DNA from: an uncultured Eubacteriales bacterium
GTDB lineage: Bacteria > Acidobacteriota > Aminicenantia > Aminicenantales > Aminicenantaceae
Assembly (NCBI GenBank): GCA_964505785.1
Contig: CAZDJZ010000007.1
Location: forward strand, 35,629 to 99,628
Direction of reading: 5' to 3'
Length of the DNA stretch: 64,000 nucleotides
Of the stretch, positions 2,388 to 60,910 are shown one piece after another; the first letter of the stretch is position 1, and the number at the start of each line of letters is the position of its first letter. A program made the position numbers and the translations under genes. The notes under the pieces are model-generated. The model was not told the origin of the DNA, did no database searches, and saw only the letters and a program-made list of their open reading frames with translations.

Positions 2388-2998
2388 ATGAGTATTCACA
2401 AAATTGGCGATGCCGTACCTTATTATACCTGACTTGAGGAATATATGAATTATTCACGCGCCATCATCCGCAAAGCGTTAATCGCAAAACGCCTAAGAAG
2501 TGAATCGTAAACCGTTAATCGTGAATGGACTGGGAATGCGTATACAATTGTTGGATACTCTGTAAAATCAACATTTTTAATTAGATAACTTTTTACTTTT
2601 CACTTTTTACTTTTCACTAGACGATGCATCATAAGATCCTTACGTCGCTTCGCTCCTCAGGACGACAATAAATAAAAAATTGTCGTCGTCTCGGCCCGTG
2701 AATGATCCAGGATGAGTATTCACAAAATTGGCGATGCCGTACCTTATTATACCTGACTTGAGGAATATATGAATTATTCACGCGCCATCATCCGCAAAGC
2801 GTTAATCGCAAAACGCCTAAGAAGTGAATCGTAAACCGTTAATCGTGAATGGACTGGGAATGCGTATACAATTGCTGGATACTCTGTAAAATCAACATTT
2901 TTAATTAGATAACTTTTCACTTTTCACTTTTCACTTTTTACTTTTCACTAGACGAGGCACCATAAGATCCTTACGTCGCTTCGCTCCTCAGGATGACA
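2365..2998. repeat. tandem duplication, two units with about 324-bp period
   Basis: The unit tctcggcccgtgaatgatccagg...cttacgtcgcttcgctcctcaggacgaca at 2365-2667 recurs at 2689-2998. The two units are near-identical. They differ by a few substitutions and by one extra cttttca unit in the second copy. Confidence 0.85.
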
Positions 2999-3101
2999 GC
3001 TCCGCTGTCACTTTTTACTAATTTACTCTTCACTCTTTACTCTTTTCTTAAAAATCATTAAAATAAAGAATAATGTTTATTTACAAAAAAGGATTTTTCT
3101 T

Positions 3102-13510: not shown

Positions 13511-13541
13511 GATCTCTTAGCCTGGCCTAAATGACTCGAGA

Positions 13542-13667
13542 GTGTCATTCCGAGAAGCGCAGTGACGAAAGATTTCAGGCTGCCTCGTGTAATGAGCCGG
13601 TCCTGTCTCACCTGCCGAAGCAGCATAAAATCCTTACGGCCTGCTGCCGCAGGCCCCAGGATGACAT
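13542..13667. repeat. B-type element, short copy
   Basis: gtgtcattccgagaagcgcagtgacgaaagat...gctgcctcg on the left and ccccaggatgacat on the right, in inverted orientation. Confidence 0.55.
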
Positions 13668-13727
13668 ATGGAGCCATTTTCTTCATTCACAGAGTGGCAT
13701 AGGTACATGATTCCTTCAAAAAAGCGA

Positions 13728-14078: not shown

Positions 14079-14397
14079 CCTGAATTATTCACGGGCCGAG
14101 ATTGCCGCAGACGTGAGGCGCAGGGCGTGAAGCTGTGGTCCTTCACCGCGAATGCCCTGCAGCAAAGTTTTATTGCAAGGCCTGCGAAGCAGGCCGTGGC
14201 AACCTTAGACGGACAGATTCTTAACAGCAAAGCCGTCTAAGGTCCTCACGTCGCTTCGCTCCTCCGGACCCCGCCTAAAAGGGTGAAAAATTGCGAAAAA
14301 ATAAAAATTTATTAATGAAAAACTTTCCCATGGATCTTTCTCTAAAAACCCCTCAAAAATATGCAAAAATACCGCAATTTTTTTTGAATAATCCAGG
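14079..14397. repeat. A-type element, full copy carrying a nested B-type fragment
   Basis: Termini cctgaattattca (14079-14091) and tgaataatccagg (14385-14397). Internal stem at 14284-14294 and 14373-14383. It has about 100 extra bp (14167-14268), including ccgtctaaggtcctcacgtcgcttcgctcctcc. Confidence 0.75.
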
Positions 14398-39906: not shown

Positions 39907-39935
39907 CCTGGCTATTCATAAAACGACCTGTCAAG

Positions 39936-40199
39936 GTCGTCCTGAGCGAAGCGACGGATCTCATGCTGCCTCGTTTTGAAAGAGCAAAGAGTGAAGAGTA
40001 AGAAGTTATCTTATTAAATCAAAAATCAAATATCAAAAATCAAAAATAAACCAAAGCCGAATAGGAAATCGGGGAATTTATTTAAATTGAATGCACCGAA
40101 CAGACTGAATAGACCGAATAGACTAAAAGAACGCGATGAACGCGCGCGCAGCTAACGCAGCCGTCTAAGATTCCCGTCGCTCTGCTCCGGGAATGACAT
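39936..40199. repeat. B-type interspersed mosaic element, full copy
   Basis: Left end gtcgtcctgagcgaagcgacggatctcatgctgcctcg; right end ccgtctaagattcccgtcgctctgctccgggaatgacat (inverted). Block-by-block colinear with 53753-54022. Preceded by an isolated A-type terminus cctggctattcat (39907-39919) directly after the TAG stop. Confidence 0.75.
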
Positions 40200-40299
40200 G
40201 GGGAGACGAGCGAAGCGAGCATGACCTGGACAGACGCAGATGGACTAGATGCAAACAGCACTTTAAAAGCCGTCAAATTTCCTATAAAATGAACGGCAT

Positions 40300-48715: not shown

Positions 48716-49720
48716 CTACTTATTAAAGGAAAACCGGATAACCTTTCTTAATCTGGTTTCGCCGGTTTGGTTTATCAAAGTTGCGAAAAAGCTGTTTTTC
48801 CCCTGTTTTAGTTTCCGGATGGACTCCGCATCATCTATGACAAACGGAATTTCCATTTTGTAGCTTTCCTTCTTGTTTTTTTTCAATTGTTCTTCCGGAA
48901 TCCGGACTTCAAATGATTCTTTATAGTCCCAGATCAGATCCCCTTTAACATCATTGAGTTCAAGCTGAAGAGACAAGGTCGTCGCTAAATCTTCGCCTTC
49001 TTCGGTGAACCACATATTGGCATAGGGAATTCCAAAATCCAATGTTCCGCTGAGCCGCTCGTCATTTCCTTCAATGTCCTGAATCGACCAATTAAAACTA
49101 AAAAAACCTTCCCTGCCGGTAATGGTCTGCTGGGCATCCGCCTGGGCACGGCTGAGGTGGTGCATATACATTAAATTGATTTCTCTTAGCCCGGTCAGAT
49201 CATATGTGACCAGATTATATGAACCAGTACAAGTCCGGTCAACAAAGACAACCGGGAAATTGCCGTAATACCAGGTTTCCTGGCACCTGCCTGAATAGCT
49301 TTGAGGATAGGTGATTCTATCCATAGGCGGCCCGAATAGAATATAAATCCGGCCCCGGTCTGTCAGCCAGCCCGGACGCCCTTCGCTGATAAATATGTCA
49401 TTAGCCCGTTCAATCCGGTTATAATATTCCATTCGAAATTCATTTTCCTCGGTTGTTGGGTCCGGATCCCGTTTTTCCCAGAATTCACGGATAAATTCAT
49501 CTTTGTCTTCGTCCGGAAGCTCCAGGAAAAGACGTTTTTCTTTATTTGAAATGATATACCGGACCTTGTTGATAAAGTCTTCATGATCGGGAGACAACTG
49601 CTTTTCCAGATTATAATAATGACAGGATACCGTCATCCAAACCGCTGCGGCGATTCCCAAGAATAAAACCCAGCGGAGAACCCGATGCCTTGCTAATTTA
49701 TTTTTTATATGCTGATTCAT
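48716..49720 (-). CDS. GWxTD-domain protein
   Basis: FIREFWEKRDP...YYNRIERANDIF...GRPGWLTDRGRIYILFGPP matches the GWxTD domain signature. ATGA-coupled to the upstream paralog. Confidence 0.8.
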   Translation of the reverse strand: MNQHIKNKLARHRVLRWVLFLGIAAAVWMTVSCHYYNLEKQLSPDHEDFINKVRYIISNKEKRLFLELPDEDKDEFIREFWEKRDPDPTTEENEFRMEYYNRIERANDIFISEGRPGWLTDRGRIYILFGPPMDRITYPQSYSGRCQETWYYGNFPVVFVDRTCTGSYNLVTYDLTGLREINLMYMHHLSRAQADAQQTITGREGFFSFNWSIQDIEGNDERLSGTLDFGIPYANMWFTEEGEDLATTLSLQLELNDVKGDLIWDYKESFEVRIPEEQLKKNKKESYKMEIPFVIDDAESIRKLKQGKNSFFATLINQTGETRLRKVIRFSFNK

Positions 49721-51789
49721 CTTTTTTTCTCCTTCAGGATTTCCAGGTTCTTTTTGATTTCAGGTTGATTGGTGTTGATCTCCAATGATTTCTCCCAGGC
49801 GGCCTGGGCTTCCACTAAATTTCCCGCCTGAAAATAACATTCCCCGATAACATTGAGAAGCGCGGCATTCAATCCATGCTCAGATATCGCCTCATTAAAA
49901 ACCTTGATTGCTTTGTTCATTTCTCCCCGGTATTGATAGGATTTACCCAGAATGAAATAAACTTCATAAGCAGGATTTTCTTCTCTTTCCATGACAGGTG
50001 TAAGCAGCGGTTCTACTTCAGCATATTCCTTGCGATTCATATATACCCGCGCCAAGCTAAGTGATATGGTATTCGAGTCCGGCTCTTTTTGGTAAGCAGC
50101 CTGCATGTATTGCATCGCTTTATCCATATCACCTTTATTAAAATACTGGGTGCCTAAGACATAATCGTACATCGGATCTTCCGTCCCAGCCAGAAGCTGG
50201 TTGTAAATCCAGGGACGGGGAATATTTTCAACATGAGTGAGATCAAACTCATCCCTTCCTGAAAAAACTTTTTGGTCATTTAATTGGAAATCCACTTCCA
50301 CGACATAATGGGCCGGGGTGAAATCCTGAAGAGAAAGCTGTTCGATTATAAGGGGAAGATTTTCATATCCACTGACATTCCGGGTAAAAGACTGAAATTC
50401 TTCGTCGTTCTTCAATAAGGTATATTTGAGTATTCCTTGCTCCTTTTGTAACGGAGACAGCCCATGAAGCTGAAAAATTATGACCAATTTATCCGTCCTT
50501 AGAAAAATGCGATTGGCCTGAAAGTGAATCTGATATTCACCGGCTTGAAAGGGACGTATCCGGTTTTCCCGGGTCGGTTTGTCCGCAAGATCATAACCCA
50601 GCAGCAGAGAGGTCATCTGCAGCTTATCGTCTTCATCAGGAATAATCAATTTCCTTTCCAAGGTCGTAAATTCCTTGGAAATCTCATTCTTCAGCATAAT
50701 CGTCAGATCATATTTCCCGGGAATCAGAGGAAACATGTCCCGGATGCTAATGGGACGGTGACTGACCTGTTTGATCTGTTCTTCAGAAAATTCAAGAGGA
50801 ATCGTTCTGTCAAATTGATAAATAATCGTATCTTCCTCATCTTTAACCGTTCCATTCAGCTGAAGGGTCGTATAATATTTATTTTCGTACATATTAACGG
50901 AAAGTCTTTCCGGTTCCAGAGCATAATTCACTAAGTATAGATTTTCGGATTCTTTTGATATGGAAACAAAACCGTCGCTGTCCATATAATTGGCTGTGTA
51001 TTCAACCTCCACGCTATCCTTGTATTCAAGAAACTTTTCGGCATAACGGTCCTTAATTTCCCGGACCGGAGTGGATTCTACACGGTTGACCAGCATATCC
51101 GAGGACATGCTGGGCCGGCCCATTGACAAATTCCGCTCGCCCGGAATTAAGGTCAAAGACACTTCCGCAAGGGCAGGATCCACATTCATGAGCTGCTCAT
51201 AGGCGGCCATATAATTGGATTGGTCCCCGTCGTAAGATGTCAATAAACCCTGAGGTCCATCCGTAAGCGGACTGTAGAGCTTGTATTCCCCGACTCCGCC
51301 GTCCTGAAAAAAAACCAAATTGAACCCCGGAGGGAGACCCTTATCGGTCATTCCCTGATAAAACCAGACTTCGGTAGGGTATACCTGATTTTTTCCCTCA
51401 AACCTTTGTATATCATTGGGTTCACCCAAGATGATATACATTCGGCCCCTATCTGTCCGCCATCCCTCTTTAGGAGCACTTCGTCCAAAAAAATGGTTTA
51501 CGTAGTTTATCCGGCGGAAATGTTCTTCACGGAATTCATTCTTTTCGGTATTCATCGTCGGATCTCTTTGTTTCCAAAAAGCTTCGATGAACAAATCCCG
51601 TTCCCTGTCGCTGCTCAGTTTTAAAAACACTTCCTTTTCCAAGGGAGAAATAATATAAACGACTTCTTTTTCCAGCCACTCCCGGTGGCGTTGGGAAAGT
51701 TCTTTTACCGAATCTGAATAAACAGATAAACATAAAGCAGATGCAAGCAATAGCAATGCAATGCTTTTTTTTATTATTCGAACAGCCAT
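49717..51789 (-). CDS. GWxTD-domain protein with C-terminal TPR repeats
   Basis: FIEAFWKQRDP...HFRRINYVNHFF...PKEGWRTDRGRMYIILGEPN, with C-terminal TPR-like repeats and a signal peptide. Confidence 0.8.
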   Translation of the reverse strand: MAVRIIKKSIALLLLASALCLSVYSDSVKELSQRHREWLEKEVVYIISPLEKEVFLKLSSDRERDLFIEAFWKQRDPTMNTEKNEFREEHFRRINYVNHFFGRSAPKEGWRTDRGRMYIILGEPNDIQRFEGKNQVYPTEVWFYQGMTDKGLPPGFNLVFFQDGGVGEYKLYSPLTDGPQGLLTSYDGDQSNYMAAYEQLMNVDPALAEVSLTLIPGERNLSMGRPSMSSDMLVNRVESTPVREIKDRYAEKFLEYKDSVEVEYTANYMDSDGFVSISKESENLYLVNYALEPERLSVNMYENKYYTTLQLNGTVKDEEDTIIYQFDRTIPLEFSEEQIKQVSHRPISIRDMFPLIPGKYDLTIMLKNEISKEFTTLERKLIIPDEDDKLQMTSLLLGYDLADKPTRENRIRPFQAGEYQIHFQANRIFLRTDKLVIIFQLHGLSPLQKEQGILKYTLLKNDEEFQSFTRNVSGYENLPLIIEQLSLQDFTPAHYVVEVDFQLNDQKVFSGRDEFDLTHVENIPRPWIYNQLLAGTEDPMYDYVLGTQYFNKGDMDKAMQYMQAAYQKEPDSNTISLSLARVYMNRKEYAEVEPLLTPVMEREENPAYEVYFILGKSYQYRGEMNKAIKVFNEAISEHGLNAALLNVIGECYFQAGNLVEAQAAWEKSLEINTNQPEIKKNLEILKEKKR

Positions 51790-51991
51790 ATTTAATTGCT
51801 CCCTGTTTATTAAAATTTCACATACCCAGGCTGATTAAACCAGGTTAGTGAATTAATTGTTATTATACCAAACCTTCCTCAGGGCAGTAAGGAAGGTTCA
51901 CATATATAAACAATTATTTATTCACTTTCGTTACATAAAGCCGCATGTTGGGCGGTTTCCGGTCACCGCGAGCGAGAAAAATGATCCCATA

Positions 51992-52228
51992 TGTCATTCC
52001 CCGGGCAGAACGACGCAGAAATCTTAGACTGCATTGTTATGCTCGCTGCGCTCACGTTCATCGCGTTCTTCGCGTTCCTTAAGTCTATTCGGTCTGTTCC
52101 GTCGGCTCGCTTCGTTCGCATGTTCATTGCAGTCTGCCTTGATATGATTTGCAGATTTGAGCTTTAAGATTTGAGATATTCAGAGCAGAATGAGATCTTT
52201 CTGGTGATTACACGCTCCTCCGGATGAC
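51992..52228. repeat. B-type interspersed mosaic element (opposite orientation)
   Basis: tgtcattccccgggcagaacgacgcagaaatcttagac...cgttcatcgcgttcttcgcgttcc...gtctattcggtctgttc...gatttgagctttaagatttgag...ctcctccggatgac. This is the reverse-complement order of the modules seen at 39936 and 53753. Confidence 0.65.
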
Positions 52229-52263
52229 CCTGGCGGGTTATTTTTGAACAAATGGTTCAGGTG

Positions 52264-52352
52264 TGGTGCGGAAGGTGGGACTCGAACCCACACGGCCTTT
52301 TGGGCCATAAACTCCTGAGGCTTACGCGTCTACCAGATTCCGCCACTTCCGC
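52264..52352 (-). tRNA. tRNA-Leu (anticodon CAG), CCA encoded
   Basis: The reverse complement reads GCGGAAGTGGCGGAATCTGGTAGACGCGTAAGCCTCAGGAGTTTATGGCCCAAAAGGCCGTGTGGGTTCGAGTCCCACCTTCCGCACCA. It has a 7-bp acceptor stem, an anticodon loop CTCAGGA, a long variable arm and a GTTCGAGTC T-loop. It is very similar to the E. coli tRNA-Leu(CAG) layout. Confidence 0.9.
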
Positions 52353-53737: not shown

Positions 53738-53752
53738 ACTATTGACACACTG

Positions 53753-54022
53753 TGTCATCCTGAGGGCTGCGAAGCAGACCGCAAGGATCTTGTGCTGCCT
53801 CGCCTTAAAGAAGTGAAGAGTAAATCAAAGATCAAAAAAAATCCAAAGCCGAATAGGAGATCGGGGTCTTTATTTAAATTGAATGGACCGAACAGACTGA
53901 ATAGACAAAGACAAACCTGGAAAGACCCAGATGGACTAATATAAGCTAAAAGAACGCGAAGAACGCGAGCGAAGCGAGCAAGACCGCCTAAGATTCCCGT
54001 CGCTGCGCTCCGGGAATGACAT
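53753..54022. repeat. B-type interspersed mosaic element, full copy
   Basis: gtgtcatcctgagggctgcgaagcagaccgcaaggatcttgtgctgcctcg...ccaaagccgaataggagatcgggg...tttatttaaattgaatggaccgaacagactgaatagac...aaaagaacgcgaagaacgcgagcgaagcgagc...cgcctaagattcccgtcgctgcgctccgggaatgacat. Confidence 0.75.
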
Positions 54023-54072
54023 GGGGTCAACCGCAAGCGCGCAGCCAGCCGGGTGAACAGATCGAATTGCGG

Positions 54073-60336: not shown

Positions 60337-60681
60337 CTTCTAAAACTTTTTGGTTTAAAGTAGCAAAAATCCCCCTCCATTGTCAAGCGCCCGGAATAGA
60401 TTTATACGACTTTTTGCTCCTAAGGTTTAAGTCCATTGAGATTTGTCTTGACTAGCCCGCTGCGCTCGCGTTCATCGCGTTCAATATAAAATGAAGAGAA
60501 TCATATTTACAATCATTCTATTACAGCGTATTAATACAGCGAATAGTCTGATGCAATCCATTCACCATTTACCATTCACCGGTTTTCCGATTCACGATTC
60601 ACGCCTTCTAGGCGTTTCGCTTGGTGCGTTAACGATGCATAGATTGTTCACGGGCCAGACGACGAACATTCTTTAATTCAT

Positions 60682-60799
60682 TGTCGTCTCGAGGAGCGGA
60701 GCGACGAGGGATCTCATAGTGCCCCGTATGGACAAAATGGAGATACTGTCCTGCAGAAACGATGCAGCCTGAGATCCTGCGCTTCGCTCAGGATGACAT
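60682..60799. repeat. B-type element, short copy
   Basis: tgtcgtctcgaggagcggagcgacgagggatctcatagtgccccg on the left and gagatcctgcgcttcgctcaggatgacat on the right, in inverted orientation. Confidence 0.6.
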
Positions 60800-60910
60800 T
60801 AGATGCGGTAAGATCCACCCCGCCCAAAGGGTTAAAAATGGCGATTAAAATATGAATAAAAAAGGAAAAAGATTAATAAATCGGCATCGCCATTTTTTAT
60901 TATGAACAAT
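60800..60910. repeat. A-type element, partial copy with shortened loop
   Basis: agatgcggtaagatccaccccgcccaaagggtt core. Stem aaaaatggcgat (60834-60845) pairs with atcgccattttt (60886-60897). Terminus-like tatgaacaatc abuts the xerD stop codon. Confidence 0.55.

Follow-up and report, generated by a model that had tools for sequence, protein, structure and literature searches.

Inverted dRS3 repeats flanking RS elements, the NIMEs reportedly described by Parkhill in 2000, are among the closest counterparts of the elements analysed here, a family of hairpin-bounded units in a 64,000-nucleotide stretch of DNA (the window) from an Aminicenantes-like bacterium, represented by the copy at 39936-40199. 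In Neisseria the inverted dRS3 repeats bound more than 100 families of 50-150-bp units, G+C content peaks at dRS3 and the arrays are variable; according to Bentley 2007, NIME arrays were at that time not known outside Neisseria (PMC1797815). Chenal et al. 2025 give the Neisseria NTS as CGTCATTCCCGCGMAVGCGGGAATCYRG, which contains dRS3 (ATTCCC-N8-GGGAAT), and describe SsnA, a 94-aa GIY-YIG protein that binds NTS solely as single-stranded DNA (ssDNA) and in one orientation, the RNA form not being bound (PMC11893778). Binding depends critically on the C that follows the palindrome and cleavage on the three bases that precede it; SsnA cuts a few nucleotides upstream, and the cut of one homologue is displaced by one base (PMC11893778). 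The ssn genes are typically flanked by Ssn-related motifs (SRM), and in the same study ssn was present in 81% of SRM-rich genomes (PMC11893778).

The ends of the elements in the window (termini) are probably a variant class of SRM, that is, ssDNA hairpins for Ssn GIY-YIG nucleases, and their inverted doublets would constitute a non-autonomous element of ~120 bp, resembling NIMEs, REPINs and BIMEs, that has bloomed in one genus. In the 3.13-Mb assembly that contains the window the terminus consists of (T)GTCAT, a 5-7-bp stem starting with AT, a G·A-bracketed inner part, the returning stem and ATC. The inner part is either GAGCGAAGCGA or a longer hairpin, for example GAGG-CCTGC-N4-GCAGG-CCGTG, and the ATC is followed on its 3' side by TTAGAC(T/G)GC(T/C)TCG or CCAAAC.... 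Of 443 model matches, 98.6% retained GTC and 95.5% the whole GTCAT, and the A-T-C after the stem, including the post-stem C, was invariant in an alignment of selected copies. This is the arrangement that characterizes SRM, an oriented semi-palindrome with a conserved GTC 5' and a conserved C 3' of its arms. With NTS the termini share the order of GTC, AT-initiated palindrome arms and C, and in one subfamily (ATTCCCG, 88-100 copies) the arms are likewise ATTCCC and GGGAAT, here 13 nt apart. In contrast to SRM and NTS, the stems are shorter, the inner hairpin is G·A-bracketed and the loop region measures 11-23 nt; the elements also possess a conserved 16-nt 3' extension (TTAGACTGCTTCG), form ~120-bp doublets and reside in an Aminicenantes-like host in whose genome no Ssn nuclease was found.

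The stem subfamilies (ATCCT, ATTCCCG, ATTCT, ATTGC, ATTCCGA, ATCCCC and others) differ through compensated changes. Over the outer five stem pairs of 456 model-defined copies 96% of pairs were Watson-Crick, and two positions alternated between C-G and T-A (254/169 and 211/229); because the tally demanded a largely paired stem, these values lean slightly towards pairing. The original prediction had called for a test of covariation between the two ends of an element. Covariation was seen in the stem within each terminus, the two ends being frequently of different subfamilies. Its proposal that the ends can pair applies only to the shared subterminal part, since ends from different stem subfamilies can pair with each other only there, and the hairpin inside each end, with its co-varying stem, matters more. 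Folding whole elements as single strands gave ambiguous structures.

A candidate nuclease gene is found in a genome of the same genus (G001), which at L179:2655-2939 (minus strand) encodes a 95-aa single-domain GIY-YIG protein (PF01541, E 5.6e-15) whose Y8, Y19 and E66 have the same spacing as Y6, Y17 and E64, the residues mutated in Neisseria SsnA. It is called Ssn-like on the basis of its PF01541 domain, size, catalytic-residue spacing and context, and its membership of cd10448 is putative. The gene has 121-bp doublets on both sides and is adjoined by a four-helix-bundle gene. When 38 metagenomic relatives of the gene were inspected, 27 had a GTC-stem-loop-stem-C hairpin within 500 nt, and hairpin density was 1.32 per kb near the gene compared with 0.34 per kb farther off. 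Most of these hairpins were G·A-bracketed, such as GTC ATTGC GAGG..GTG GCAAT C, and the ATTGC subfamily also occurs in the genome studied here. High copy number and intergenic location of the motif are further likenesses to the SRM/NTS system. An ssn-type gene flanked by the motif, seen in G001 and for most of the metagenomic relatives but not found in this genome, would be another.

A covariance-model and profile search of the assembly returned 595 termini at E<=0.01, a number that rose to 698 with a cut-off of E<=0.1, and confirmed an organized, dispersed, non-coding family bounded by inverted motif copies. Approximately 48% of the termini lay in inverted pairs of up to 1 kb and the remainder were not so paired, so that inverted pairing, anticipated for the genome as a whole, holds for part of the family. 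There were 169 convergent pairs with GTCAT facing outward; 134 of them spanned 100-135 bp (mode 117-122 bp) and 34 spanned 136-700 bp. The doublet of ~120 bp, at first regarded as a short form, thus represents the canonical element; the copies of 264-270 bp, on which the original prediction had centred as the full ones, are a variant found in a minority. An element frequently carries ends from two different stem subfamilies, and what is shared is the subterminal TTAGACTGCTTCG together with a middle part that includes a small hairpin of the CCGATTCATTCGG type. Tandem arrays were present in 26 of the 34 long interiors; most had a period of 7 (45 arrays) or 9 (13), and 13 of the interiors held further GTCAT or ATGAC words. 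The 264-270-bp mosaic copies are the same element with an interior that has grown by 7- and 9-nt tandem arrays and nested or partial termini.

G+C content was 56.5% in termini, 48.9% in short interiors and 41.8% in long interiors, compared with 46.8% for the whole genome. Clusters of termini lying within 400 bp of each other contained up to seven termini. Although crude gene calls cover 88% of the genome, 79% of the termini were located outside them, and spacers between convergent genes were occupied more often (23%) than divergent (16%) or co-directional (12%) ones. Orientation relative to transcription was even, with 119 termini on the same and 109 on the opposite strand.

Within the window, the starting motif gave two matches with up to three mismatches allowed and none in 100 shuffles, and a repeat scan recovered the shared blocks of the copies. 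Covariance model R1, built from genome copies, detected 13 termini, which form four inverted pairs and five solo termini, the latter at 1077-1121, 2622-2669, 2953-3000, 14228-14269 and 51990-52036. The motif was present where it had been placed beforehand, with short forms and single termini as described. The features are as follows.

39933-39973, + strand: left terminus of long copy A, a degenerate hairpin of the putative Ssn type (GTCGT...GGATCT); R1 19.6 bits, E 0.0033
39974-40155, no strand: interior of copy A, with an (AAATCAA) array at 40016-40047, a small CCGA/TCGG hairpin block, a (ACCGAATAG) array at 40095-40123 and the GAACGCG repeat
40156-40200, - strand: right terminus of copy A, ATTCCCG stem subfamily; R1 51.7 bits, E 1.6e-12
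53751-53802, + strand: left terminus of long copy B, ATCCT stem subfamily, with extended inner hairpin GGCTGC-GAA-GCAGAC; R1 50.9 bits
53803-53978, no strand: interior of copy B, colinear with the copy A interior except for three indels
53979-54023, - strand: right terminus of copy B, ATTCCCG stem subfamily; R1 46.1 bits
13541-13668, no strand: canonical doublet of 128 bp with a short middle, in the genome-wide 100-135-bp class; R1 matches 13541-13587 (+) and 13616-13668 (-)
60680-60800, no strand: canonical doublet of 121 bp; R1 matches 60680-60726 (+) and 60760-60800 (-)
1077-1121, - strand: good right terminus, belonging to the related long copy 892-1124, whose left end is degenerate; R1 42.7 bits
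51990-52036, + strand: terminus of the inverted related copy 51985-52235, adjoining a tRNA gene at 52267-52352 (-); R1 35 bits
2622-2669, - strand: solo terminus in unit one of a local tandem duplication of 324 bp, repeat families D1 and D9; R1 38.2 bits
2953-3000, - strand: solo terminus in the second unit of that duplication, repeat families D1 and D9; R1 50 bits
14168-14269, no strand: degenerate doublet inside a copy of another ('A-type') repeat family, alignment A2; weak R1 match 14228-14269 (-)

The long copies A (39936-40199) and B (53753-54022) are both intergenic and, as had been claimed, colinear: 189 of 227 aligned positions were identical (83%), with three indels. Tandem Repeats Finder reported periods 7 and 9 in the interior of copy A, and separate blocks of this copy recur alone at many loci of the genome. 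In a four-way alignment the copies at 892-1124 and 51985-52235 (inverted) had a 9-nt GACCGAATA array, the GAACGCG block and one good terminus in common with A and B. Their earlier description as related copies (892-1120 and 51992-52228) is valid to this extent, whereas their second terminus is degenerate and was not found by R1.

Each of the genus's three genomes gave at least 136 model matches; other genera of the family gave 0-1, and one genome of the order gave five. The bloom, which amounts to ~600-700 termini in 3.1 Mb, is confined to one genus. A degenerate core 25-mer of the motif, GTCATYCYGAGCGRAGCGARGRATC, is by comparison widespread, and the supposition that similar motifs occur in many metagenomes proved correct: at least 120 stretches contained it, representing no fewer than 15 phyla or candidate phyla, including Acidobacteriota, Chloroflexota, Nitrospirota, Planctomycetota, Bacteroidota, Bacillota, Gemmatimonadota, Verrucomicrobiota and Patescibacteria. 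In these stretches the motif often formed inverted doublets of 75-85 bp, and partial 5' halves were likewise stacked upstream. Clustering of the open reading frames near the motif at 120 loci of other phyla gave no recurrent neighbour protein, as would be expected where one gene serves hundreds of sites. The motif strings occurred in none of the papers searched, and Rfam matched only tRNA in the window and nothing relevant in two elements even at E<=10.

The junctions between units and with flanking DNA point to where the elements may have been cut. Where outward-facing ends abut, the spacer in ATGAC-N-GTCAT was most often 8 nt long (45 cases), less often 9 nt (20) or 7 nt (14), with a minor peak at 18-19 nt, and the spacer sequences were mostly different. 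No target-site duplication was detected in the flanks of 103 intact pairs (1-9 nt at offsets 0-3; 3-8 nt at offsets 0-15), the counts being approximately those of shuffled flank pairs. The flank consensus was weak and symmetric (ccccaT-GTCAT...ATGAC-Atgggg) and its two sides varied independently. In addition there were 60 5' half-hairpins that ended near the apical loop, 20-34 nt upstream of the next GTCAT; some were identical to the neighbouring full copy and others belonged to another subfamily. Compared with a second bloom-bearing genome (G002), most occupied loci were occupied in both, some differed through the addition of partial units or entire doublets, and at a few the site was empty in G002. 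At the copy A locus synteny was broken in both G001 and G002, and the flanking gene compared was ~85% identical in G002.

Spread and rearrangement may have proceeded via single-strand cuts ~4 nt outside GTCAT. Such cuts would account for both the missing target duplication and the ~8-nt abutment, which equals twice the presumed 4-nt cut offset, so that abutting units would meet exactly at the predicted cut sites. Hairpin-provoked breaks or template switches among many similar copies would in turn account for the stacks of 5' half-hairpins and the mixed end subfamilies. Where a genome retains the nuclease, the sites would probably function as in Neisseria, with exposed or incoming single strands being cut beside them and recombination being modulated. 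The junction patterns fit cuts outside the hairpin together with template switching, but are no proof of nuclease-driven movement.

Neither tblastn nor a profile of 22 relatives run on the six-frame translation (best E 0.35) revealed ssn in this assembly, and PF01541 matched UvrC only. On a related metagenome contig (L207), ssn and the four-helix-bundle gene lie together, and the sequences on either side of them match C18:7749-9137 and C18:11532-12602 of this genome. The intervening sequence C18:9137-10297 has zero N bases and contains only termini and 9-nt arrays, which are followed by the four-helix-bundle gene. Judging by this comparison of contigs, ssn was presumably lost at its ancestral locus in this genome. 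With an assembly completeness of 90%, a copy outside this locus is unlikely. The elements in this genome are probably relics. The advice to look for co-occurring mobilizing enzymes thus met with a divided outcome, an ssn-like gene being present in the congeneric G001 and not found here, and the Y1 transposase genes discussed below being uncorrelated with the bloom. Within C18:9137-10733, the presumed ancestral ssn locus, repeats fill the site and only the neighbouring four-helix-bundle gene (TIGR02436) has been kept. On L207 itself (1390-2340) the ssn frame seems interrupted, possibly by a frameshift (tblastn match of 277 nt; in-frame TAA).

Several points weigh against the assignment of the termini to Ssn and against a part for Ssn cuts in their spread. 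The published SRM pattern, HGTCWYN(0-2)YYVSBRHN(0-5)WNVSBRGN(0-2)RNCYNB, matched just 1 of 595 termini, and its 15 matches genome-wide are at chance level (8-16 in simulated genomes). Stem mismatches comprised 42 G:T and 53 A:C; there is no excess of G:T and hence no sign of selection on one particular strand. The gene was not found in this genome (90% complete) or in G002 (83% complete), both incomplete assemblies, and G002 may hold a copy elsewhere. The few filled-versus-empty comparisons with G002 are untidy, and in the two clean ones the indel exceeded the element by 20-34 nt. An element's two ends would be cleavable on opposite strands, from which simple single-strand cut-and-paste does not follow. 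We know of no demonstration that Ssn moves DNA. The evidence on Ssn in the 2025 paper is cleavage and an effect on transformation only (PMC11893778). The cut position, 3 nt 5' of the 28-nt NTS and so 4 nt 5' of GTCAT, is one that we infer from the part of the paper's text that gives oligonucleotide lengths (a 37-mer from 6 nt before the cut, a 28-mer from 3 nt after it; 37 = 6 + 3 + 28; PMC11893778). With respect to the pattern, the published form misses, and therefore under-counts, this hairpin class.

Mobilization by other enzymes must also be considered. Ordinary miniature inverted-repeat transposable elements (MITEs), being deletion derivatives of insertion sequences moved in trans by a DDE transposase that recognizes ~50-nt inverted ends, would be consistent with inverted ends that start TG...CA (TGTCAT...ATGACA), a tight ~120-bp size class and presence/absence variation between species of the genus. 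We nevertheless regard a MITE origin as very unlikely, because no target-site duplication was seen at any tested length or offset, the paired ends enclose neither a transposase nor a recurring coding insert and the genome yielded no multi-copy coding repeat. The ends are moreover of mixed stem subfamilies with co-varying stems, which fits recognition of a structure and not sequence binding by one transposase. Elements of the REP/BIME type, spread by a RAYT (REP-associated tyrosine transposase of the IS200/IS605 Y1 class), have the same unit layout (a conserved 5' word, a hairpin and inverted doublets, as in REP and REPIN), and the absence of target duplication suits Y1 enzymes. Two Y1_Tnp genes are present in this genome, and REP_Tyr_transpos is the best NCBIfam match. 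Both proteins score below the curated cut-off, however (59 and 72 bits versus 80), no terminus lies within 2 kb of either gene, and the Y1 gene on contig C1 has a private, non-dispersed flanking repeat of its own (GACCCCATT). Y1_Tnp genes occur in 31 of 41 related genomes irrespective of the bloom, and none was found in the bloom-bearing G002; we likewise regard spread by a RAYT as very unlikely.

It is also conceivable, if unlikely, that no dedicated enzyme was involved and that the hairpins are hot spots of recombination and slippage, spread by gene conversion and template switching among hundreds of copies. Mosaic elements with ends mixed between subfamilies would be expected from such a process, as would the 60 5' half-hairpins ending at the apical loop, termini inside local tandem duplications, indels relative to G002 that exceed the element and the persistence here of ~600-700 termini in a genome in which no ssn gene was found. 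It leaves unexplained, however, the near-invariant GTC and post-stem C, the 8-nt abutment and the occurrence of Ssn-like genes amid hairpins of the same type in unrelated metagenomes, and a means of initial dispersal to new loci is still required. That the elements act as RNA, in the form of structured non-coding transcripts, terminators or mRNA stabilizers, is suggested by stable hairpins that are most frequent between convergent genes (23% versus 12-16% of other spacers). This is hardly credible, given that there is no orientation bias (119 versus 109), divergent promoter spacers are occupied too, Rfam gives no match even at E<=10 and there is no excess of G:U-type mismatches; the related NTS is, moreover, not bound as RNA (PMC11893778).

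Taking the termini as a variant SRM class, we can place the element among described repeats. It was previously believed not to be characterized, yet its terminus layout is that of NTS/dRS3 and SRM (PMC11893778), and hairpin-bounded mosaic units have been described as NIMEs (PMC1797815). As in NIMEs, palindromes bound variable units, arrays cluster (up to seven termini per cluster; pairs of 100-700 bp), G+C peaks at the palindromes and array length differs between related genomes. In contrast to NIMEs, the ATTCCC-N8-GGGAAT form of dRS3 is absent from the termini, where the same arms are at least 13 nt apart and other arms are commoner, and the long-form interiors are mostly 7- and 9-nt tandem arrays. 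The REP/REPIN/BIME elements of enterobacteria, Pseudomonas and Stenotrophomonas resemble the family in their 5' word and hairpin, in the predominance of inverted doublets, in mosaic clusters and in the lack of target duplication; they differ in their 5' word (GTAG, versus GTCAT here), and the RAYT-like genes here show no linkage to the elements and no correlation with the bloom. Correia and other bacterial MITEs are likewise small, non-coding, intergenic and present in hundreds of copies with inverted ends, whereas the elements studied here have no TA or other target duplication and no related insertion sequence, and their end subfamilies are self-folding and co-varying. Distinguishing features of the family are a hairpin class outside the published pattern, ~120-bp doublets with array-filled long forms, an Aminicenantes-like host and persistence without the nuclease.

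A connection to Ssn would explain much intergenic repeat DNA and extend NIME-like mosaic repeats beyond Neisseria, and each hairpin subfamily becomes a candidate for the site recognized by a new nuclease specific to single strands. The 8-nt junctions, together with the stacked half-hairpins, amount to a concrete prediction of the nuclease cut position, so that mobilization of elements by the nuclease, left open by the 2025 paper, becomes testable. The core hairpins (at least 120 stretches, at least 15 phyla) are routinely mis-translated as small 'hypothetical proteins'. A broader proposal, which we put forward tentatively and consider doubtful, is that the G·A-bracketed GTCAT hairpin defines a separate pan-bacterial Ssn specificity class, that Ssn cuts delimit and spread the elements and that blooms can outlive loss of the nuclease. 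If true, the junction signature (8±1-nt abutment, no target duplication and stacked half-hairpins) would be the first genomic evidence of Ssn cuts delimiting or spreading elements, beyond restriction of transformation.

Further observations concern arrays and associated repeats. At C14:13791-13911 a 9-nt GACCGAATA/GACTTAGAT array is shared with locus L023 of G002 and the adjoining terminus is found only in this genome; since the array is common to both species and the terminus is restricted to one, arrays and hairpins are separable modules. These arrays were also found in other genera lacking the hairpin bloom. At six loci (L062, L065, L101, L107, L132 and L138) from Acidobacteriota and Saccharimonadales the doublet is nested in a larger palindrome, GGCTGCGGAAAAA...TTTTTCCGCAGCC. 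In the window, both units of the 324-bp local tandem duplication at 2365-2942 (254 nt, 98% identical) contain an (ACTTTTC) array along with a solo terminus. In the 'A-type' copy at 14079-14384 a degenerate doublet of 102 nt stands in place of the 19 nt seen in other copies, a replacement and not a clean insertion.

A repeat family of ~400 bp with copies 83-93% identical (six in total, including C2:55987-56390, C2:368287-368687, C3:101630-102038, C11:62772-63180 and C12:82214-82614) has a 123-bp doublet in mid-copy in all four copies checked, and this doublet has apparently been copied together with its ~400-bp carrier element. Outside the window, a RAYT-like Y1 gene at C1:94050-95200 (locus L002) is flanked on both sides by AATGGGGTC/GACCCCATT, with six copies within 2 kb; as this repeat is not dispersed, it resembles a REP-like set private to the gene. 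Paired ends separated by 0.4-8 kb were considered as the borders of a parent element, and the open reading frames that they enclose are ordinary (aldose epimerase, antiporter, lipoate ligase and a YihY-like protein). Comparison of the genome with itself for a multi-copy coding repeat gave only a duplicated cation-efflux gene and gene paralogues. The cation-efflux (CDF-type) gene lies in a 1.3-kb inverted duplication (C1:42913-44212 and 48821-50120; 98.8% identical), which is adjoined by four stacked 5' half-hairpins and then a full terminus.

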